Source: an uncultured Acidimicrobiia bacterium (GTDB taxonomy: Bacteria; Actinomycetota; Acidimicrobiia; IMCC26256; JAENVU01). Taken from it: a stretch of DNA of 64,000 bases. The DNA is taken from assembly GCA_963820025.1 (NCBI GenBank), contig CAWFYL010000007.1, positions 798,693 through 862,692 of the forward strand, given 5' to 3'. Of the stretch, positions 5,704 to 27,268 are shown in pieces (the stretch's first letter is position 1; each line of letters begins with the position of its first letter). A program made the translations under genes and the position numbers. The notes under the pieces were generated by a model, which was not told where the DNA came from, did not search any database, and saw only the letters and a program-made list of their open reading frames with translations.

Positions 5704-7327
5704 CTAGGCGGGTACCCACTCCTCGGGCTCGGGTGACTCGGCGAGCGCGGGCTCGGTCTCCTGCGGCGCACCGAAGGGTCCGGTCTCGTCCTCCTCGCCG
5801 GAAGGCTGCCCGTGCACGTACTTCCCGCCCCGCATCCACGACGCGGCGGCCGCGATCAGGCACATCACCATCGCGACCGAGAACGCGATGACCAGCCCGT
5901 GCTTGAACGGCCCGGAGATCAGGTGGGGGAAGAACCCCTTGCCGGTGAGGTGCGCGGCCTTCGCCCTGGGGAGCCGGGACAGGACGCTCGGGCCACCGTG
6001 CGCGCCCGGCGCGCCGAGCAGCTTCTGCATCGGGTTGTACCCGAGGAAGGCCGCGAAGAGGCTCCCGACTGCGGGGAGGTGGGCGACGTGCTCTGCGGTC
6101 GCCGCGGGCACCGCGTTGGCCTCGACCTGCGTGGCCATGCGGCCGGGGAGCGACGCCGAGAGGCCGACGATCATCAGCGAGAAGAACACCGAACGACAGC
6201 ACCATCCCGGTGTTCTGGAACGTCGCCCGCATGCCCGATGCCGCCCCGCGCTGCTCGGGTGGCGCGCTGTTCATGATGCCGGTCATGTTCGGAGCCGAGA
6301 ACATGCCGGTCCCGATGCCGTTCAGCAGCAGGAGCGCGCCGAACACCGGGAAGCCGAAGTTCGTGGGCAGCGTCATCAGGAGTCCGAACGACGCAGCGGC
6401 GATCAGCATGCCGCCCGTCGTGAACCAACGCGCGCCCCAGCGATCGGACAGCCACCCGCACACCGGTCCGGCGAGCAGGAACCCGCCGGTCAGCGGGAGC
6501 ATGTAGATGCCGGCCCAGAGCGGCGTCCGCTCGAAGCTGTAGCCGTGCAGCGGGAGCCAGATGCCCTGCAACCAGATGATGAGGACGAACTGCAGGCCGC
6601 CCCGACCGACCGCCGCGAGCAGCCCGGCGATGTTCCCGGCCGCGAACGCGCGGATCTTGAACGCCTGGAGGTTGAACATCGGGTCCTCGACCCGGGTCTC
6701 GATCACGCAGAACACGACGAGCAGCGCCGCGCCGCCGACGAGCTCGAGCAGCACCCAGGGGCCGGTCCACCCCATCGAGGCGCCGTGGTGGGGGAGGAGC
6801 CCGTAGGTGAGGCCGATCAGGACGAGCACGAGGCCGGCGATCACGCTGACGCCGATCGCGAACCCGCGCTGGTTCGCCTTGAAGGCGTCCGTGAGGATCG
6901 CCGCCGAGTTCGCCATCAGCAGCGCACCCCCGACGCCCTGCACGACCCGCCACGCGATGAGCCACATCGCGCCCTGCGAGCCGGGACACGGGCACAGGGA
7001 GAGCGCGAGCGACGCAACGCTGAAGACCGCGAACCCCGCGTTGTACATGCGGACGCGGCCGTACATGTCGCCGAGGCGCCCGAACGTGACGACGAGCACC
7101 GCGGTGACCACGAGGTAGCCCATCAGCATCCACAGGAGGTAGCTGATGTTCGAGGGCTGCAGCGGGTCGAGGTGGATGCCGCGGAAGATCGCGGGGAGCG
7201 AGATCAGGACGATCGACGAGTCGAGCGACGCCATGAACACGCCGAGGGTGGTGTTCGACAGCGCGGTCCACTTGTACCGGTCGGAGCCTCCTGCTTCCGG
7301 GGCGGGTGCCGTGGTGGTGGCCGTCAC
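5704..7327 (-). pseudogene. MFS drug:H+ antiporter, DHA2 (EmrB/QacA-like), 14-TM type; one frameshift near 6185-6190
   Basis: The N-terminal ~380 aa are in ORF 4070..7468 (start GTG 7327 after GAGGAGG; LDSSIVLISLPAI, GRLGDMYGR). The C-terminal 160 aa are in ORF 5704..6189. The junction reads ...NTGMVLSF/VFFSLMIVG, consistent with an extra base at the cc run 6189-6190. Length is 3n+1. Confidence 0.85.
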
Positions 7328-9260: not shown

Positions 9261-9323
9261 GATTCCTCCCTGGTCGACGACCTCGGGAGGTTACGCCTCG
9301 CGCCGGGTGCTAGAACGCCGTCC

Positions 9324-9781
9324 ATGACCACGTCCTTCGCATCGGTCCAGGAGCTGCTCGGCGGCGGCGGGGCGCGAGCTCGGCACGACGGACTGGCTCG
9401 TGATCGGCCAGGACCGGATCGACCAGTTCGCGGACGCCACCGAGGACCACCAGTGGATCCACGTCGACGTCGAGCGGGCGAAGGCGGGACCGTTCGGCGG
9501 CACGATCGCGCACGGCTACCTCACGCTCTCGCTGTGTGCCTTCTTCCTCGGGCAGCTCGCGAGCGTCTCGGGGATCTCGATGGGCATCAACTACGGCATC
9601 GACAAGGCCCGGTTCATCGCCCCGGTTCCCGCCGGGTCGAGCGTGCGCGGTCGGGGCGAGGTCGTCGTCGGTGACCGAGGTGGCGGGCGGCGTGCAGGCG
9701 GTCGTCCGGATCACCGTCGAGCTCGAGGGGTCGGAGAAGCCCGCCGCGGTCGTCGACACGGTGTCGCGCTACCTCGTCTAG
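9324..9781 (+). pseudogene. MaoC-like (R)-hydratase/dehydratase hotdog protein; two +1 frame changes
   Basis: The gene is readable only across three frames: MTTSFASVQELLGGGG (frame of 8031..9674), then RELGTTDWLVIGQDRIDQFADATEDHQWIHVDVERA... (ORF 9400..), then ...VTEVAGGVQAVVRITVELEGSEKPAAVVDTVSRYLV (ORF 9536..9781). The first shift is at the GGGG run 9369-9372. Confidence 0.8.
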
Positions 9782-11821
9782 CCGGCTCGTCGACTCCGGG
9801 TCCGGCTCCGTCGGACGCGGCGGTCACGTCGGCGAGGAACGCGTGGACGACCGCGGGGTCCACGACCCTGCGCATCGGCGGGAGCGCGTCGAGCAGCGTG
9901 TCGCGGTAGCCCGCGGTGGCGAGCCGGCGGTCGAGGACCGCGACGACGCCCCGGTCGTGCCGGCTGCGGATCAGCCGGCCCGCGCCCTGCGCGAGCACGA
10001 GCGCCGCGGCCGGGAGGTCGACGTCGCGGAACCCCGAGCCGCCGGAGCGCTCCGCCGCCTCCCGCCGGGCCTGCGCGAGCGGGTCGTCGGGGCGATTGAA
10101 CGGGAGGCGGTCGATCACGACGAGCACGCAGCTCGGGCCGGGGACGTCGACCCCCATCCAGAAGCTGCGGGTCGCGACGAGGCAGGAGCGCTCGTCGGCG
10201 CCGAACTGCTGGAGGAGGGCCGAGCGCGAGCCCTCGCCCTGCACGAGGATCGGATGGTCGGCCTCGGCTCGCAGCACGAGGCTCAGCGCGGGTGACCGCG
10301 GCGCGTGAGGTGCACAGCACGAGGCCGCGACCGCCGGCCGCGGCCACCAGCTCACGCACCTCCCGGGCCGCCGCGTCCGCCCAGGCCGGGTCCCGGGGCT
10401 CGGGCAGGTGCTCGCGCGACGTAGAGCATCGCCTGCTCGCGGAAGTCGAACGGCGACTCGACCTCGAGGTCGTCGTAGCCGAAGCCCGGCCCGAACTCGT
10501 CGTCGGCGTCGCCGGCCGGGGCGTCGGGCCCGTCCGGGATCCGCACCGGCCCGAGCTCCGCGGTCGGGTCCAGCCCGACCCGCTGGGCGAACGGCGCGAA
10601 CCGGGGCCCTCCGCCGAGCGTCGCCGAGACGAGGACGACCGGGAGCCGGCGGAACAGGCGGTCGGCGAGCGCCTCGGCGACGCTGATCGGCGCGAGGTGC
10701 AGCACCGGTCCCTCGCGCCACGCCACCTCGTCGGCACGCGGGGCCTGCAGCCGGCGCAGCGCGTCGAGCCGCGAGGCGCCGAGCTGCGCGACCTGCGCGG
10801 CGCGCGGTGGCGTCCTCGGACGCGTCGATGGCCGCGTTCGCGGTCGCCAGGCGTTCTGCGGCGGAGCCGAGTGCAGCGGCGAGCGCACCGTCGGTCGGGT
10901 CGACGCGGCCGTCGAGCGCGTCGATCGCGCGCTCCAGCGCGTCGGCGGCCGCGGCGACGAGGTCCGTGTCGCCGCGGCCGACGCCGACGCTGCTCAGCCG
11001 CGACGCGAGCTGGCGGAGGCCGATGGCGCTGACGTCGAGCCCGAACGCGCCGGTGGCGACGTCCGGCAAGCGCGTGCGCCTCGTCGAACACGACGACGTC
11101 GTGCTCGGGCAGGACGTTGCCCGACGGACGCGAGGTGCGCGCAGTAGAGCGCGTGGTTGACGACGAGGACGTCGGCGGTCGTCGCCCGCTCGCGGGCCTT
11201 CTCGGCGAAGCAGGTCTCGCCGTCGCTGCACTTGCCCGCGCCGGGGCACTCGCGTGGCGCGCAGCTCGCGGCCCGACGCGACGCCGTCGGCGATGTCCAC
11301 GTCGGCGAGGTCGCCGGTGGCCGACGTCGGCGACGAACTCCTCGAGGCGTTCGAGGTCGCGGGCCAGGGTGGGGCCGGGGCGTTCGTCGAGCAGCGGCGG
11401 CACCGTCGAGCGCGACCCGGAGCTTCGCCCGGCACACGTACTGCGACCGGCCCTTCAGCAGCGCGGCGCGAGAACGGCACGCCGCCGTGCTCGCGCAGGT
11501 GGGGGAGGTCCTTGTGCCAGAGCTGGTCCTGGAGCGTGAGCGTCGCGGTCGAGACCACGACCTTCAGGCCGGAGGCGACCGCGGGGACGAGGTACGCGAG
11601 GCCCTTGCCCGAGCCGGTCGGCGCCTCGGCGACGAGGTGGTGGCCGGCGGCGATGCGCGGCCGCGACCGCGGCGGCGAGCCGGCAGCTGGCCCGGCCGGT
11701 CGTCGCCACCGAGCGCGGTCACCGCGGCCGCGAGGACCGACGGCGCGTCCGGAACCCCGGTTCTTGGGGCTGGATGTGGCTCGTGGGGCTGCTGTGTGCC
11801 TCTGTCATCCGCGTCGCTCAC
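9711..11821 (-). pseudogene. dinG: ATP-dependent DinG/XPD-family helicase; conserved blocks spread over all three frames (11 frame changes)
   Basis: The blocks follow each other in successive frames: RPGQ, then IAAGHHLVAEAPTGSGKGLAYLVPA, VVVSTATLTLQDQLW, AALLKGRSQYVCRAKL, CPGAGKCSDGETCFAEKARERATTADVLVVNHAL, VVVFDEAHAL, VLVSATLGGG and ILVQGEGSRSALLQQF...SFWMGVDVPG. Length is 3n+2. Start (GTG 11821) and end are uncertain. Confidence 0.8.
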
Positions 11822-12007
11822 TCGCCCGGCGAGGCTAGGTGGCCGGTCGGGACCGCGGGCGCGGACGCCGCCGGGACACCCAAATTCCGTCAATTCGGAG
11901 GTATTGCCGAGCCGATCGCGCAAAAACCCCAGGAAAATCCGCCGTTTCGGAGTCCTGTCGTGCAAGGCTGACCCCATCAACCCAGTCCGTTCCTCGAAGG
12001 AGTCTCA

Positions 12008-12292
12008 GTGAACCGCAGAGATCTGGTCACGGCGATCGCCGAGCGCACCGAGTCCGACAAGAAGTCCGCCGATGCGTTCCTCGCCGCTTTCACCGAGGTC
12101 GTCACCGAGACGGTGGCGGCGGGCGACCCGGTGGCCATCACCGGCTTCGCCAAGTTCTACCGGCGTGAGACGACGGCCCGCATGGGCCGCAACCCAGCGA
12201 CCGGCGAGCCCATCAAGATCCCGGCCAAGAAGGCGGCCAAGATCACGCCGCTGAAGGGCTTCAAGGACGCGGTGCTCGGCGGCAAGAAGTAG
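12008..12292 (+). CDS. hup: HU family nucleoid-associated DNA-binding protein
   Basis: 94 aa, with GFAKFYRRETTARMGRNPATGEPIKIPA (the HU beta-arm signature). GTG start 7 nt after GAAGGAG. Confidence 0.95.
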   Translation: MNRRDLVTAIAERTESDKKSADAFLAAFTEVVTETVAAGDPVAITGFAKFYRRETTARMGRNPATGEPIKIPAKKAAKITPLKGFKDAVLGGKK

Positions 12293-12325
12293 CACCCGGC
12301 GCCCGCGGGCGCCACCGAGCAGCTG

Positions 12326-12357
12326 GATGAGGGGAGGCCACACGGCCTCCCCTCATC
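12326..12357 (+). terminator. stem-loop downstream of hup (14-bp perfect stem, ACAC loop)
   Basis: GATGAGGGGAGGCC-acac-GGCCTCCCCTCATC starts 34 nt after the hup stop. There is no U-tract, as is common in high-GC actinobacteria. Confidence 0.6.
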
Positions 12358-12373
12358 GCGTCAAGATGCCGCC

Positions 12374-13201
12374 ATGGGAATGCTCGACGGGGAGCCGGCG
12401 ATCGTCACCGGCGGGGCGTCCGGCATCGGTCGGGCGACCGCCGTGCGCATGGCCGACGAGGGCGCGGCCGTCGCGATCATCGACGTCGACGAGACCGCGG
12501 CAACGAGCCGTCACCGCCGAGCTCGGGGATCCCGGCGTTCGTCGCCGACGTCAGCGATCCCGAGGCGTGTGCACGCCGGCGATCGACGCCGCGGCCGCCG
12601 CGCTCGGCGGGCTCACGGTGCTGTTCAACAACGCGGGCGTCGGCGCCGCGATGCCGCTGCACACGCTACTCGGACGCCGAGTGGCGCCGGCTCCTCGACG
12701 TGAACCTCGCCGGCACCTTCCACGGGATCCGGGCCGCGGTGCCGCTGATGCGCGAGCGCGGCGGCAGCGATCGTGAACCACGCGTCGGTGAGCGGGGTGC
12801 GCCCGACCCGGTTCGAGGGTCCGTACTCCGCCGCGAAGGCCGGGGTGATCTCGCTGACGATGGACGCGGCGCTCGAGTACGCGCCGTCCATCCGGGTGAA
12901 CTGCGTGTCGCCCGGGCTGGTCGAGACCAACCTCACCGCGGTGGTGCTCGGCGACCCGGGCCTGCGGGCCGCGGATCGAGGCAGGCGACGCCGCTCGGCC
13001 GCATCGGCACGCCCGAGGACGTCGCCGAACCTCGTGGTGTTCCTCGCGTCGCCGCTCGCGTCCTACATCACCGGTCAGAACATCGTCATCGACGGCGGGT
13101 CGTGCCTGCCCAACCCGCAGGCGGACGCGATCCTCCAGTGCGTACGTCGAGCGCCGCTGAGCACCGGCGGCGCTCAGGCCGGGCGGTCCGAGCGCTCGTA
13201 G
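12374..13201 (+). pseudogene. short-chain dehydrogenase/reductase (SDR); about 7 frame changes
   Basis: SDR blocks occur in alternating frames: [66 protein letters not shown]...YSAAKAG, TPLGRIGTPEDVA and ASYITGQNIVIDGG. The 3' end is uncertain. Confidence 0.75.
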
Positions 13202-13861
13202 CGCCAGCCGGTGTCGACCATCCAGAGCCGGTGGCGCGCGCCCGGCACGGGTCGCGTCGCCGTCCTCGTACCCGGCGTCGCCGTGCCAGAGCACCACGAC
13301 GCCCTCGTCGGTGAACGCGGCCTTCGTCGTGAAGTGCTCGGGCTCGGTCGCGCGTGCCGCCGTCGATCGCCTCGTCGACGGTCGCGTGCGCGGCCAGCGT
13401 GTGCAGCGTCACCCACGTCGGCGGTGCGAGCTCGATCTCGAGCGCGTCGCGGCGGCGCAGCGCCTCGGCGGGCGAGACCCACATGTGGTCGCGGATCTCG
13501 CCGTCGTCGATCGTGACCTGGCCGGTCGGGGCGCGGGCGACGAAGAACTGGGTCGAGAAGCGCTTCGGGGCCTCGGGCGGCGGGGTCCAGTGCGCGAACG
13601 GGACGAGCGCGGTCGCCGTCGACGGCGAGCCCGGCCTCCTCGGCGGCCTCGCGCACCGCGGCGTTGCGTCCCGCGGTCGCCACCTCGGTCGCGTCGGGGT
13701 GTCGTGCCGGCCGGGAAGTCGCCCGGGTCCACCCGCCCGCCCGGGAACACCCACATCCCGCCCGCGAACGCGAGCCGGGAGTCGCGCCGCAGCATCAGCG
13801 TCTCGAGCCCGTCGGCGGTGTCGCGGAGCAGCACCACGGTGGCGGCGGCGACGATCGGCAC
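13174..13861 (-). pseudogene. NUDIX hydrolase; 4 frame changes
   Basis: Four consecutive frames are needed: MPIVAAATVVLLRD...GGMWVFPGGRVDPGD, then the Nudix box remnant AAVREAAEEAGL, then PFAHWTPPPEAPKRFSTQFFVA...IRDHMWVSPAEAL, then VVVLWHGDAGYEDGD...RHRLWMVDTGWRYE. Confidence 0.7.
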
Positions 13862-14027
13862 CGGCTCCGCACCCTCGGCTCGACTGGGCCCAGCGGGCGA
13901 ATCGCGCCTGCTCGGTGTCGCGGCTCGTCGTCCACCGCGCCGACGCTACCGGCGCCCCGGACCATCGCACGATTCTCATCGTTCCCCGCACCGAACCGCG
14001 CCGGGGACCCGGCGTAGGGTCGCGCCG

Positions 14028-14962
14028 ATGACCGGAGACACCGTGGTCGCGGTGCGCGGCCTCACGAAGCGCTACGGGCGGGTGCAGGCCGTCGCGGGCC
14101 TCGACTTCGAGGTGCACCAGGGCCAGGTGTGCGGGCTGCTCGGCCCGAACGGTGCGGGCAAGACGACCGCGCTGCGCATGCTCGTCGGGCTGATCCGGCC
14201 GACCGCGGGCGAGGCCCGGCTCTTCGACCGGGTGGTGCGGCCCGGGCGCGCCGGAGCTGGCCCGGGTCGGCACCATGATCGAGCACGCGGCGTTCGTCCC
14301 GCACCTCTCGGGCATGCGGAACCTCCGGCTCTGGTGGGAGGCCGGCGGCGCGCCGTGGGCGGACGCGGATCTCGAGGGTGCGCTCGCGGTCGCCGGGCTC
14401 GGCGCGGCGATCGAGCGGCGGGTCAAGACGTACTCGCAGGGCATGCGCCAGCGGCTCGGGCTCGCGCGGGTGCTGCTCGGCCGGCCCGAGCTGCTGCTGC
14501 TCGACGAGCCCACCAACGGCCTCGACCCCCAGGAGATGCGGGCGGTGCGGGAGCTGCTGCGCCGCCTCTCGGACCAGGGCGCCACCGTCCTGCTCTCGAG
14601 CCACCTCCTCGCGGAGATCGAGCAGGTCTGCAGCCACGTGGTCGTGATGGACAAGGGCCAGCTCGTCACGGCCGGCACGGTGAGCGAGCTGCTCGCGGTC
14701 AGCACGTCCGCGTACTTCGAGGTCGACGACGTCGAGGCCGCTCGCCGCGTGCTCGCCGCCGCGCCGGGCGTGCTGCGGGTCACCGACGAGACCCGCGGCC
14801 TGACCGTCGAGCTGGACGGCGACGACGCGCGCCGCGCTGGTCGCGGCGCTGGTGAACGCGGGGGTCGCGGTCGAGACGGTGACCGCGCGCCACCAGCTCG
14901 AGGACGCGTTCCTCGGCCTGGTCGGCCGCCACACCGAACGCCACATCGGGAAGGGCGCCTGA
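14028..14962 (+). pseudogene. ABC transporter ATP-binding protein (ABC-2/DrrA-like); 2 frame changes
   Basis: Walker A GPNGAGKTT (frame of 13311..), then signature/Walker B YSQGMRQRLGLARVLLGRPELLLLDEPTNGLD (frame of 14275..), then C-terminal ALVAALVNAGVAVETVTARHQLEDAFL in the third frame. TGA at 14960-14962 overlaps the next ATG. Confidence 0.8.
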
Positions 14963-15780
14963 TGCTGCGGCTCATCCGCACCGAGCTGACCAAGCAGGTG
15001 CTGCGGCCACGGACGTGGGTCGCGCTCGGCTTCCTCGTGATCGTGCCCGTCATCATCGCGGTCGCCCTGAAGCTGAACCCGCCGGACCTCTCGGGCGACG
15101 GGCAGGGTCCGCGGTACTTCTACCTGGCCACCCAGAGCGGGCTCTTCCTGCCCGTGGCCGCGCTCCGGGTCATGAGCGGCTTCTTCCTGGTCGTCGTGAT
15201 CTGCATGTTCGCCGGCGACGCGGTCGCGAGCGAGGCGGGCTGGGGCAACCTGCGCTACCTGCTGATGCGGCCCGTCGGCCGGGGACGGCTGCTCACCGCC
15301 AAGCTCTTCGTCGCCGCAGTGTTCGCCGTCCTCGCGACGGCCCTCGTCGCGCTCTCCGGGCTGGTCGCCGGGGTCATCGCGTTCGGCTGGCACTCGATCA
15401 CGATCCCGTTCATCGGGCTGTCGCAGTCGCCGAGCGAGATCCTCGGCCACCTCGGCCTGGCCACGCTCCTCATCACCTGGGGGCTCGCCGGGATCATCGC
15501 CTTCGCGTTCATGCTCTCGACGATGACGGACTCCGCCGCGGGCGCGATCTTCGGCGCGGTCGGGCTCTACATCGTCTCGTTGATCCTCAACGAGATCACC
15601 TCGCTCGGCTCGATCCGCTACGGACTGCCGGTCCACTACTACGACTCGTGGTGCGACCTGTTCGTCCGCAACACCTTCACCGACGACATGTGGCGCAGCG
15701 TGCTGTTGCAGATCCCGTACGTCATCGTGTTCTGCGCCATCGCGTGGTGGTGGTTCCACCGCAAAGACATCAAGTCGTAG
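14962..15780 (+). CDS. ABC-2 type transporter permease
   Basis: In-frame ATG at 14962 inside ORF 14275..15780. Six hydrophobic segments. Translationally coupled to the ATPase through an ATGA overlap. Confidence 0.8.
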   Translation: MLRLIRTELTKQVLRPRTWVALGFLVIVPVIIAVALKLNPPDLSGDGQGPRYFYLATQSGLFLPVAALRVMSGFFLVVVICMFAGDAVASEAGWGNLRYLLMRPVGRGRLLTAKLFVAAVFAVLATALVALSGLVAGVIAFGWHSITIPFIGLSQSPSEILGHLGLATLLITWGLAGIIAFAFMLSTMTDSAAGAIFGAVGLYIVSLILNEITSLGSIRYGLPVHYYDSWCDLFVRNTFTDDMWRSVLLQIPYVIVFCAIAWWWFHRKDIKS

Positions 15781-15784
15781 TTGC

Positions 15785-16075
15785 TCTGAGCGACCCTGGC
15801 GGGTTGTTGCGGCGGGCGGGAAGCATCGGCACGAACCTGCCCTGCGCCACGCGCGGTTGCGGTCGCTCAGGTGACTCGGGTGGTGCCCGAGCCCCGAGGG
15901 TCAGTCGGGTGGCGGGAAGCATCGGCACGAACCTGCCCTGCGCCACGCGTGGTTGCGGTCGCTCAGGTGACTCGGGTGGTGCCCGAGCCCCGAGGGTCAG
16001 TCGGGTGGCGGGAAGCATCGGCACGAACCTGCCCTGCGCCACGCGCGGTTGCGGTCGCTCAGGTGACTCGGGATC
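15785..16075 (+). repeat. repeat family A, locus 1: tandem 96-bp unit x about 2.7 copies
   Basis: Units start at 15816, 15912 and 16008 (GCGGGAAGCATCGGCACGAACCTGCCCTGCGCCACGCGCGGTTGCGGTCGCTCAGGTGACTCGGGTGGTGCCCGAG...). The copies differ by one substitution. CTGAGCGACC at 15787-15796 is the inverse of GGTCGCTCAG within the unit. Confidence 0.9.
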
Positions 16076-16536
16076 GGACCCGGCCTGCGCTCAACTCTGG
16101 GGCGGGCGGCGAGGTAGGCCTTGACCATGGTGGCGAACTCGCCGACGTTGTAGATGTCCTCTTCGTAGGACCACTGGTCGTCGCCCGCGTACTTCAGCAG
16201 CGACCAGTTGATCGCCTGGTGCTGCCGGCCGTCGCCGATGTCCTGCATACGGTTCCAGACCGCGCACACGACCCAGCCGCGATCCTCGTCGATCACCCAC
16301 CAGTCGGCCGGGAACTCCGTCATCTCGTGGTTCGGGTACTCGGCCATCGTCGTGCTGATCCACCGCCGGATCGCCTCGCGGCCGCGGAACGTCCCGTAGA
16401 GGTGCTCGACGTACTCGGCGTCCTCGGTGAAGAGGTCGGCCCACGCGTCCCACTGGCCGGACGCGCCGGCTTCGGCCGCGGTGGCCCGGTAGTGCGCGTA
16501 CGCCCGCTCGATCTCGTCCCGCGTGAATTTCCCCAT
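15997..16536 (-). CDS. SnoaL-like / NTF2-fold protein; C-terminal ~25 codons and the stop lie inside repeat A
   Basis: MGKFTRDEIERAYAHYRATAAEAG...WWVIDEDRGWVVCAVWNRM is typical of the SnoaL_2/NTF2 superfamily. ATG at 16536 is preceded by GGGAAGAGG, which is contributed by repeat B. Confidence 0.75.
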   Translation of the reverse strand: MGKFTRDEIERAYAHYRATAAEAGASGQWDAWADLFTEDAEYVEHLYGTFRGREAIRRWISTTMAEYPNHEMTEFPADWWVIDEDRGWVVCAVWNRMQDIGDGRQHQAINWSLLKYAGDDQWSYEEDIYNVGEFATMVKAYLAARPRVERRPGPIPSHLSDRNRAWRRAGSCRCFPPPD

Positions 16537-16547
16537 GAGGACACCTC

Positions 16548-16731
16548 TTCCCAAGATCTCCGGAGGGCGATCACCCGGGCACGGTTCGGCTCGGTGCCCT
16601 CCGGCGGCTTTTTCCCAAGATCTCCGGAGGGCGATCACCCGGGCACGGTTCGGCTCGGTGCCCTCCGGCGGCTTTTTCCCAAGATCTCCGGAGGGCGATC
16701 ACCCGGCACGGTTCGGCACGGCGCCCTCCGG
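16548..16731 (-). repeat. repeat family B, locus 1: 64-bp BIME-like unit x 3
   Basis: TTCCCAAGATCT occurs at 16548, 16612 and 16676. Arms CCGGAGGGC and GCCCTCCGG alternate (16560, 16596, 16624, 16660, 16688, 16723). Confidence 0.9.
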
Positions 16732-16754
16732 TGGCTCGAACGTGTACGTGAACC

Positions 16755-17589
16755 CTAGCGACGGAACGCGGCGCGGCCGTCGAGCGTACGGACCTCGCGG
16801 CCGAGCTCCTCGAGCACCTCGGCGCTCGTGGCGCGCCGCCCGGTCATGCGGGCCGGATCCACGCTGCACAACGCGAGGGCGGCCTCGGCCATCTGCTCGA
16901 TCGGCTCGACGTGGCCCGGCTCGTCGGGCATGAGCCCCATCGCGATCACCCCCGGGGTCGCGACCGCCGCACACCGGTGCGACCGCGTTGACCGCGACGC
17001 CGCCCGCGAACACCTCGGCCGCGAGCCCCGTCGTCAGTCGCTCGAGCGCGGCCTTGCTCGTGCCGTAGAGCGTGGCGCCGTTGTCCGCGTGAAAGGGGGT
17101 GAACGGCGGGCCCTCGGGATGGGCCGACACGCCGGAGGAGATGTTGACGATCGCGCCGCGCCCGCGTTGCAGCATGCCGGGGAGGACGGCCCGGCTCAGG
17201 TCCCAGGGCGCATGGACGTTCACCTCGAACATCACCGCGTACCGGCGAGGGCTCACCCGATCCCAGGGCAGGTAGAAGCACGCGGCCGCGTTGTTCACCA
17301 GGACGTCGACGGCGCCGAGCGCGCCGCGTGCGTCCTCGATGATCGCGGCCCGGTCCACTGCGGGGTCCGACAGGTCGGCGACGACGATGTGGGCCCGGCC
17401 GCCGTCGGCCTCGATCCGGTCCGCGGTCTCCCGGAGCGACCCCGGGTTCGCGTCGGCGTCGGGCTCGGCGGTCCGGCCGACGAGCGCGACCGCGGCACCC
17501 GCGGCGGCGAGGCGCCGGGCGATGGCCGCGCCGATCCCACGGCTCGCCCCGGTGACGACCGCGGTGCGCCCGTCCAGCTCCTCGGTCAT
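16755..17589 (-). pseudogene. SDR family oxidoreductase; single frameshift near 16950-16975
   Basis: MTEELDGRTAVVTGASRGIGAAIA...NNAA...YGTSKAAL lies in ORF 16699..18168. The C-terminal IAMGLMPDEPGHVEPIEQMAEAALALC lies in ORF 16755..16949. Length is 3n+1. Confidence 0.8.
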
Positions 17590-25869: not shown

Positions 25870-27268
25870 ATGGCGGAACGGACGACGCGCACCGAAAGCG
25901 ACAGCATGGGCCCGATCGAGGTGGGGAGCGACCGCTACTGGGGGGCGCAGACCCAGCGCTCGCTGCACCACTTCACGGTGGGCGACGACCGCATGCCGGA
26001 CGCGGTGATCCGCTCGATGGCGGTGCTCAAGAAGGCCGCCGCGGGTGTGAACCGCGACCTCGGCAAGCTCTCCGACGAGTACGCCGACCTGATCTGTCGC
26101 GCCTCGGACGAGATCATCGCGGGGGAGCTCGACGACCACTTCCCGCTGTTCGTCTGGCAGACCGGATCCGGCACGCAGACGAACATGAACGTCAACGAGG
26201 TCATCTCGAACCGGGCGATCGAGCTCGCGGGCGGGAAGCGGGGCAGCAAGAGTCCGATCCATCCGAACGACCACGTGAACATGTCGCAGTCGTCGAACGA
26301 CACGTTCCCGACGGCCATGAACATCGCCGCGGTCGAGGAGGTGACGAACCGGCTCGTCCCGTCGGTCCGGGCACTGCGCGACGCGCTCGCGAAGCGGGTC
26401 GAGGACTTCGCCGACATCGTGAAGATCGGCCGGACCCACCTGCAGGACGCGGTGCCGCTCACCCTCGGCCAGGAATTCTCGGGCTACGTCGCCCAGCTCG
26501 ATGCCGACATCGAGCGCATCGAGGTCGCCATCCGGGGCCTGTTCGAGCTCGCGATCGGTGGTACCGCGGTCGGCACCGGCCTGAACACGCACCCGGAGTT
26601 CGCGGATCGCGCCGCGTCGAAGATCGCCGAGATCACCGGGCTGCCGTTCACCTCCGCCGCGCAACAAGTTCGCCGCGCTGGCCTCGCACGACGATCTCGT
26701 CTTCGCGAGTGGCGCGCTGCGAACCCTCGCCGTGAGCCTCATGAAGATCGCCAACGACATCCGGTGGCTCGGCTCCGGCCCGCGCGCGGGTCTCGGCGAG
26801 CTGATCCTGCCCGAGAACGAGCCCGGTTCCTCGATCATGCCGGGCAAGGTGAACCCGACGCAGTCCGAGGCGCTCACGATGGTCTGCGTGCAGGTGCTCG
26901 GCAACGACACCGCCACGTCGATCGCCGGCTCGATGGGCAACTTCGAGCTCAACGTGTTCAAGCCGGTGATGATCTTCAACTTCCTGCACTCGGTCGACCT
27001 GCTGACCGACGCGTGCGCCAACTTCCGCCGGTTCTGCGTCGAGGGCCTCGAGCCGAACCTCGAGCAGATCGCGGAGTACGTCCGCGACTCGCTCATGGTC
27101 GTGACCGCGCTGAACCCGGTCATCGGCTACGACAAGGCCGCCGCCATCGCGAAGCAGGCCCACAAGGACAAGACCACGCTCCGGGAGGCGGCGATCGCGT
27201 CCGGGCACCTCACCGCCGAGGAGTTCGACGCCGCGGTGCGCCCCGAGGAGATGATCGCCCCGAAGTAG
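25870..27268 (+). pseudogene. fumC: class II fumarate hydratase; single frame change near 26655-26665
   Basis: [18 protein letters not shown]...[13 protein letters not shown]...[11 protein letters not shown] is in ORF 25813... [16 protein letters not shown] (the fumarase signature) is in ORF 26732..27268. The junction is ...[21 protein letters not shown]. Length is 3n+1. Confidence 0.9.

Follow-up and report, generated by a model that had tools for sequence, protein, structure and literature searches.

Six genes lie between positions 9324 and 14962 of the window (the whole 64,000-nucleotide stretch analysed here), encoding a MaoC-like dehydratase, a DinG-like helicase, an HU protein, an SDR, a NUDIX hydrolase and the ATP-binding component of an ABC transporter, with an ABC-2 permease gene overlapping the end of the last (Table 1; related loci are numbered L001 onwards). 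All except the HU gene contain frame changes, and the five affected genes, once repaired, match the Pfam families MaoC_dehydratas, DEAD and Helicase_C_2 (DinG), adh_short and adh_short_C2 (SDR), NUDIX and ABC_tran; an Rfam scan of the window gave no hits. Because a single-base loss abolishes its stop codon, the dinG frame extends from about 9779 to 9711. The repaired SDR gene stops at 13158–13160, whereas its frame as written continues to 13201. Once closed, the five frames would encode proteins of 151 aa (MaoC), about 660 aa (DinG), 258 aa (SDR), 252 aa (NUDIX) and 310 aa (ABC). Two single-base losses in the NUDIX gene (13705 and 13697) both fall in a length-variable loop.

Table 1 Features of the frameshifted zone and its surroundings, in window coordinates
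Feature	Start	End	Strand	Remarks
SNP-dense tract relative to L084	9322	16342		putative stretch of two collapsed strain haplotypes
MaoC-like dehydratase	9324	9781	+	2 extra bases near 9360–9363 and 9666–9668; 458 nt, mod 3 = 2
DinG-like helicase	9711	11808	-	13 extra bases near 11795, 11752, 11685, 11656, 11469, 11401, 11330, 11285, 11127, 11069, 10802, 10415 and 10288; 1-nt loss at 9780
HU gene	12008	12292	+	intact; protein identical to L001, L002 and L003
SDR	12374	13160	+	9 events (10 extra nt) near 12506, 12522, 12574 (2 nt), 12663, 12769, 12974, 12981, 13030 and 13139
NUDIX hydrolase	13174	13935	-	5 extra bases near 13926, 13877, 13614, 13364 and 13246
ABC transporter ATP-binding gene	14028	14962	+	2 extra bases near 14241 and 14821
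ABC-2 permease	14958	15772	+	frame intact; within divergent tract, 26 mismatches to L084

Frameshift-aware alignment of the window to the intact orthologues of L004, a short-read MAG, locates 29 events (MaoC 2, DinG 12, SDR 8, NUDIX 5 and ABC 2), every one of them extra sequence (28 of one base, one of two). Stitching across these junctions leaves no in-frame stop in any of the five genes and yields proteins with 80–84% amino-acid identity to their L004 orthologues. Further references reveal additional events in DinG (about 11795, its 13th extra base), SDR (13139, its ninth) and NUDIX (13926), together with the single-base losses in the NUDIX loop and the dinG stop codon. The total for 9324–14962 is about 34 frame-changing events, 31 of insertion type and three single-base losses. 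As an independent check, the short-read scaffold L002 gives seven frame changes within the first 810 bp of dinG. An earlier sequence-only reading had counted 26 shifts here, 24 of the +1 kind; the zone it described is real and so is the insertion bias, but its number was slightly low. Gene lengths modulo 3 match the event counts as it had stated, and the gene ends fall at its coordinates (MaoC start 9324, ABC stop codon ending at 14962). The indel rate is indeed far from uniform, at 5.1 events per kb inside the zone against 0.14–0.17 outside, and at the rate seen outside, 29 or more zone events would have a Poisson probability below 1e-32. The edges of the zone are fairly sharp (the SurE-like gene and the permease have probabilities of zero events of 0.011 and 0.015, respectively). 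The HU gene within it is intact, as had been pointed out, but this is uninformative, with a probability of 0.23 for no event in 285 nt.

In a near-identical contig from another sample (L084; ENA ERZ25039533 contig_13793, 1.09 Mb), aligned to window positions 1–21840, all five genes are intact, with no frameshift. The two sequences share 99.9% identity on both flanks, and their mismatches number 261 in 9300–16600 (3.6%) versus 16 in the 14.5 kb of flanks (0.11%), with a dS of 0.05–0.18 for genes of the tract and 0 for flanking genes; the HU gene contributes 11 third-position differences. One-base insertions in the window relative to L084 number 47 inside the tract and three outside, and correlate with mismatches per 500 bp (rho 0.77 overall, 0.80 within the tract). 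The ratio of the two varies along the tract, with no insertions at 15–16.3 kb despite 31 mismatches. At positions that distinguish the window from L084, the outgroups share the window base in 207 cases and the L084 base in 48, and since only six private alleles occur at otherwise invariant sites, the window carries few substitution errors. A scan of genome contigs for relatives returned only matches of 80–88% identity; a protein search for L084 beyond 22 kb gave a best match that was 91% identical and lay on another contig.

Comparing each extra base with its neighbouring sites reveals a second pattern. In 16 of the 27 +1 events that can be tested, the extra base matches the majority base of seven outgroups at the adjacent site, at which both L084 and the window carry another base; simulated random insertions do so in 18% of cases (p = 2.5e-6). 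Examples are GT at 9667 (for G or T), CA at 11655, GT at 11125, GA at 13027, AC at 13361 and GA at 13611. The signature is absent at the remaining 11 events. Two other candidate lines of support were set aside: an enrichment at third codon positions (61% versus 42%) disappears without run-extending events (48/73 versus 61% expected, p = 0.24), and the transition/transversion spectrum of the doublets fits SNP and random-insertion models alike, because the natural third-position differences of the clade are already 57–81% C↔G. The idea that each extra base lengthens a G/C run did not hold: in the window 2 of 28 events lengthen a run, where random insertion would predict 31%, and such events are likewise depleted when the window, L001 and L007 are combined (6 of 79 versus 31%, p = 5e-7).

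Within the same clade, +1 breaks occur at a rate of 0.27 per kb across 22 long-read loci versus 0.019 across 25 short-read loci, a difference of about 14 times; the long-read set consists of Nanopore-only Microflora Danica MAGs with Flye-style names, as judged from contig names and PMC12313526. Frameshift errors are reported to be commoner with Nanopore than with HiFi in soil assemblies (PMC13087279). Private one-base insertions number 22 in the window, 36 in L001, 11 in L007 and none in the short-read L004. L007 and L009 have their own local bursts of +1 breaks at other positions, and L001 carries 3.5 per kb throughout, over 20 kb. L001 was discarded as a protein reference, its 636-aa ‘DinG’ ORF being mostly out of frame, and was used as another example of an error-laden long-read contig.

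For the other ~58 kb, to which the earlier reading had assigned about nine breaks, a Viterbi decoder based on codon usage proposes 8–10 candidates, and five of these candidates lie within single Pfam domains. Breaks outside the zone include those at 26661, 41254 and 53260, and a small cluster at 60–63 kb of the window, with breaks at 60786 and 62755. The break at 6189, formerly taken for an extra c, is instead a two-nucleotide deletion relative to L007 and L009. Window insertions at 16969, 2623 and 2922 occur where the window and L084 are otherwise alike; such insertions, with no neighbouring L084 difference, indicate that plain over-calling also occurs in the window.

We conclude that the zone is probably an artefact of a consensus in which the haplotypes of two strains were collapsed. 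The window would be a long-read metagenome assembly, as its closest relatives are Nanopore/Flye contigs, and its source sample would have held two coexisting strains of one Acidimicrobiia species, with reads of both haplotypes presumably present. These strains would have near-identical flanks and differ by a few percent over a tract of ~7 kb (9.3–16.6 kb), probably through recombination import, and the assembler would have merged both into a single path; Flye is known to merge strains of ~98.7% identity into one consensus (PMC8302730). A consensus or polishing step that presumes one haplotype, and takes base loss in reads to be likelier than substitution, might then sometimes write both alleles adjacent at strain-differing sites, each doublet adding one base and shifting the frame; the presumed preference of the caller for ‘xy’ over ‘x’ or ‘y’ is a likelihood argument. 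This would account for near-exclusive insertions, avoidance of homopolymers and restriction to the strain-differing stretch. Two further expectations of collapsed haplotypes agree with what we observe: insertions share the 9.3–16.6 kb tract with the L084 mismatches and co-vary with them, and the allele of L084 stands beside the one typical of the clade at the 16 events described above. The five genes would be functional in the organism, and of the features observed, the ~7-kb strain-variable tract beneath the artefact is the only one that likely reflects real biology.

The cause suggested earlier, a plain low-coverage or unpolished long-read consensus with random over-calling and no second haplotype, appears unlikely. 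It can draw on the insertion-biased breaks that run throughout L001 and, at low rates, through most of the related long-read loci, on window insertions with no neighbouring SNP (16969) and on the 11 events that lack a doublet. It does not predict, however, that the burst should coincide with a tract of 3.6% divergence between genomes that are otherwise identical, or that the alternative adjacent-site allele should be the extra base at three times the chance rate, and it predicts neither the depletion of run-extending events nor the scarcity of deletions and of private substitutions (six). The tract could be the branch of a low-abundance strain, in which case low depth may contribute.

Far less credible is a burst of frameshift mutations that truly inactivated five adjacent genes. 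The frame breaks do stand in the deposited sequence, and those at 6189 and 20319, outside the zone, are common to the window and L084, so that some breaks in this lineage may be genuine or systematic. In nature, bacterial indels are biased towards deletions, against the 31 insertions and three deletions of the zone, and the repaired genes show no in-frame stops and a dN/dS of 0.14–0.22 versus relatives, the level of intact orthologue pairs (terminal-branch estimate ~0.18). Also against this reading, the same five genes are intact between the 99.9% identical flanks of L084, the same error type recurs in other long-read contigs and is near absent from short-read ones, and mutation offers no explanation for the both-alleles pattern. 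Programmed +1 ribosomal frameshifting was considered and rejected, the orthologues in L004, L005, L006, L084 and L002 being uninterrupted at every window junction. Homopolymer-length or G/C-run miscalling of the sort typical of nanopore data is similarly implausible: G and C account for about 80% of the inserted bases and a few insertions adjoin an identical base, but that proportion simply mirrors the composition of the surrounding sequence, insertions that extend a run are depleted and no event lies within a long homopolymer. The five genes are very probably not pseudogenes, their stray extra bases stemming from the merging of two strains. The original preference for an artefact over simultaneous gene death is strongly supported by the intact L084 genes, the 31:3 ratio, the ordinary dN/dS and the near freedom of short-read relatives from such breaks.

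We lean slightly towards a broader, twofold reading: that a real ~7-kb recombination or strain-variable tract (MaoC-DinG-HU-SDR-NUDIX-ABC) separates co-occurring Acidimicrobiia strains that are otherwise identical and, in addition, that tandem-allele insertion is a general collapsed-strain signature in Nanopore MAG catalogues. If true, this signature would explain much of the ~14-fold excess of +1 breaks that such catalogues show relative to short-read MAGs in high-GC lineages. The biology of the organism is little affected; all five are best regarded as intact genes, and a gene-death event should not be reported. In long-read MAG catalogues, local +1 bursts would raise pseudogene counts, split genes and depress apparent coding density, and would mark spots of strain collapse. 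The insertion-only, homopolymer-avoiding, SNP-tracking pattern could serve to flag and repair such stretches without short reads, and also to locate strain-variable tracts. Our literature search yielded general remarks about frameshifts in Nanopore data and about strain collapse, and found no account of an insertion-only bias or of tandem writing of both alleles.

Several known systems resemble the zone in part. Genuine pseudogene blocks in reducing genomes likewise have neighbouring genes interrupted by frameshifts, but genuine decay brings a mixture of deletions, insertions and stops with relaxed selection, of which the window shows no sign, and a near-identical relative is intact. False pseudogenes in Nanopore assemblies share the breaking of ORFs by single-base indels in genes that are intact in short-read or better-resolved assemblies (PMC13087279; PMC12313526). 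Classical long-read error concerns homopolymer length, is often deletion and is spread with coverage; the errors seen here, unlike these, are nearly all insertions that avoid homopolymers, and they are restricted to a single stretch of 5.6 kb. Strain collapse of the metaFlye type places close strains in one consensus contig (PMC8302730), and the window is like it in that the affected stretch alone separates two genomes that are otherwise identical. Such collapse usually yields a mosaic consensus with SNVs, whereas the window carries tandem alleles that give +1 frameshifts.

High G+C (72% in the window) leaves wrong-frame reading frames open, so coding frames were traced by GC3 periodicity combined with homology; after stitching of the frames, Pfam supports the identities of all five broken genes (see table). 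A seven-state codon-usage Viterbi decoder, run across the whole window, split 9.36-14.96 kb into frame segments of 50-600 nt and returned 8-10 candidate breaks in the rest, those at 16969, 26661, 41254, 60786 and 62755 each lying within one Pfam domain. Frame-changing indels (events) reach 5.1 per kb in the zone versus 0.14-0.17 per kb outside it (Poisson P < 1e-32), bearing out the hot zone proposed in a sequence-only reading. That the intact HU gene carries no event is unremarkable (P = 0.23); the zone edges are fairly sharp, since the neighbouring SurE-like gene and permease are both event-free (P = 0.011 and 0.015, respectively). Further breaks of the +1 (mod 3) type fall in genes for fumarase C (26661), a BD-FAE/esterase (41254), an ABATE/zf-CGNR regulator (60786) and an aldehyde dehydrogenase (62755), and in an unnamed gene (53260), four of these five within single Pfam domains; two more, at 60034 and 61184, are doubtful. 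With three or four breaks, 60-63 kb may form a second small cluster.

Genes of the frameshift zone, with frame-changing events relative to the proteins of the short-read MAG L004, and intergenic tandem arrays
Feature	Position	Strand	Events	Basis or repeat structure
MaoC-like dehydratase	9324-9781	+	2	Pfam after frame stitching
DinG-like helicase	about 9780-11808	-	12	Pfam after frame stitching
HU gene, intact	12008-12292	+		
Short-chain dehydrogenase (SDR)	12374-13160	+	8	Pfam after frame stitching
NUDIX hydrolase	13174-13935	-	5	Pfam after frame stitching
ABC ATPase	14028-14962	+	2	Pfam after frame stitching
Tandem array, intergenic	15815-16072			unit 96 nt, about 3 near-perfect copies
Tandem array, intergenic	16548-16736			unit 64 nt, about 3 near-perfect copies
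Tandem array, intergenic	59279-59458			unit 61 nt, about 3 near-perfect copies
Tandem array, intergenic	60962-61254			unit 92 nt, about 3 near-perfect copies

A scan of species-representative genomes identified the relatives of the window as Acidimicrobiia MAGs. One short-read scaffold (L002), located by exact look-up of the HU protein, bears the intact N-terminal 270 residues of DinG, and ungapped tblastn of this piece against the window passes through frames -1, -3, -1, -2, -3, -1, -2 and -3: 7 frame changes in 810 bp. The short-read MAG L004 retains all five genes intact, and its proteins served as references for a frameshift-aware protein-to-DNA aligner written for this analysis. At 80-84% identity, the five alignments contain 29 events and no in-frame stops; all 29 are insertions (28 single-base, one two-base), and nucleotide alignments with 6-7 relatives reduce each event to a single window-only base. 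With closer references, DinG gains a 13th insertion, near 11795, and SDR and NUDIX one more each, at 13139 and 13926. They also reveal three 1-nt losses, two of them within a NUDIX loop of variable length and the third abolishing the stop codon of DinG. This brings the count to about 34 events, 31 of insertion type; the 26 frame changes counted by eye (24 of them +1) fell slightly short.

Decay into pseudogenes can be rejected. Once repaired by removal of the extra bases, the genes show ordinary dN/dS (0.14-0.22 against six relatives), indistinguishable from pairs of intact orthologues, and a symmetric count of private 1-nt indels in the five-gene alignments gives 22 insertions and 0 deletions for the window, versus none of either in short-read L004. 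The long-read relatives L001 and L007 have 36 insertions and 3 deletions, and 11 and 0, respectively, by the same count; with the frameshift-aware aligner, 40 of 44 events in L001 and 11/11 in L007 are +1, at positions that differ from those in the window. Self-trained decoders applied to 47 related high-GC loci found +1 and -1 breaks at 0.27 and 0.056 per kb in the 22 Nanopore-only loci (built by Flye+Medaka; PMC12313526), compared with 0.019 and 0.024 per kb in the 25 short-read loci. L007 and the long-read locus L009 have local bursts of their own elsewhere (10.6-12.8 kb and 16.6-17.6 kb), and together with the long-read excess these tie the phenomenon to data type rather than to this locus. 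In L001, +1-biased breaks run at ~3.5 per kb throughout its 20 kb; a related long-read contig, L035, also has +1-biased frame breaks of its own. These data suggest that such breaks are a catalogue-wide issue in high-GC Acidimicrobiia MAGs.

Querying with the repaired DinG protein retrieved an intact 644-residue orthologue on a 1.09-Mb contig (ENA ERZ25039533 contig_13793; L084), which aligns over window 1-21840 and has all five genes intact. Outside 9.3-16.6 kb (14.5 kb) we find 16 mismatches (0.11%), 3 window 1-nt insertions and gene dS of 0; inside, 261 mismatches (3.6%), 47 insertions and dS of 0.05-0.18. Mismatches and insertions co-vary per 500 bp (rho 0.77 overall, 0.80 within the tract), and the frameshift zone is therefore exactly the one place in window 1-21840 where the two otherwise identical sequences differ. 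The insertion-to-mismatch ratio is nevertheless uneven along the tract and drops to zero in 15-16.3 kb. At differing sites, outgroups agree with the window at 207 and with L084 at 48; private alleles at otherwise invariant sites number only 6 in the window versus 40 in L084. Both allele sets look like real evolutionary variants.

Gene content also varies at this locus, as SDR (window 12362-13192) is missing in L006, L007 and L009 but found in L001, L004, L005, L008 and L084. As written, the DinG frame continues over 9711-9812, 34 codons beyond the L004 stop and ~23 beyond that of L084, overlapping the MaoC 3' end, because the 1-nt loss lies at 9780, the site of an overlapping CTAG stop pair in L084. 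Two breaks are common to the window and the independent L084, at 6189 (MFS transporter gene; 2-nt loss) and 20319 (UvrD/HelD-like helicase gene; 1-nt loss), both relative to L005-L009; neither is a +1 insertion, and they are either real lineage mutations or systematic errors. The MFS gene call in L084 ends in an out-of-frame, Arg/Pro-rich tail. The tandem arrays are break points of alignments with more distant relatives, and an Rfam scan of the window gave no match for any of the four. Their 96- and 92-nt units look like reverse complements within one family, the 64- and 61-nt units have CCGGAGATCTTCGGAAGGG in common, and the 96-nt array is one copy longer in L084 than in the window.

Many junctions resemble both alleles of one variable site placed in tandem. 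At 9667 the window reads GTCG-T-CGG, L084 GTCG-CGG and all or most outgroups GTCT-CGG; at 11655, 11125, 13027, 13361 and 13611 the window has CA, GT, GA, AC and GA, L084 has C, G, G, C and A, and all or most outgroups have A, T, A, A and G, respectively. A +1 event was scored positive if its inserted base matched the outgroup majority at a neighbouring position for which L084 and the window have a different base; 16 of 27 testable events were positive, versus 18% when insertions were placed at random in simulations on the repaired genes (p = 2.5e-6). The other 11 lack the signature, and no SNP lies near the insertions at 16969, 2623 and 2922; ordinary over-calling must therefore also be at work. 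Neither third-codon-position enrichment nor the doublet base spectrum discriminates between models. Inserted bases are 80% G/C, matching local composition, and run-lengthening insertions are depleted (6/79 pooled over the window, L001 and L007, versus 31% expected; p = 5e-7), which contradicts the earlier proposal that the extra bases extend G/C runs. The artefact reading holds in substance, given the ordinary dN/dS and the intact genes of L084, and fails in its proposed cause.

The frame breaks of the zone are not real biology; the underlying ~7-kb strain-variable (recombination) tract probably is. We propose that the assembly merged reads from two haplotypes, one L084-like and the other clade-typical, into a single path; Flye collapses strains of about 98.7% identity (PMC8302730). 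If bases dropped from reads cost less than substitutions in a single-haplotype consensus, a balanced SNP would preferentially be written as 'xy' rather than as 'x' or 'y' alone. Collapse with such a preference would account for an indel spectrum made up of insertions only, for the scarcity of events in homopolymers and for their restriction to the variable tract. The biological interest is low; for quality control of long-read MAGs the signature is of modest interest.
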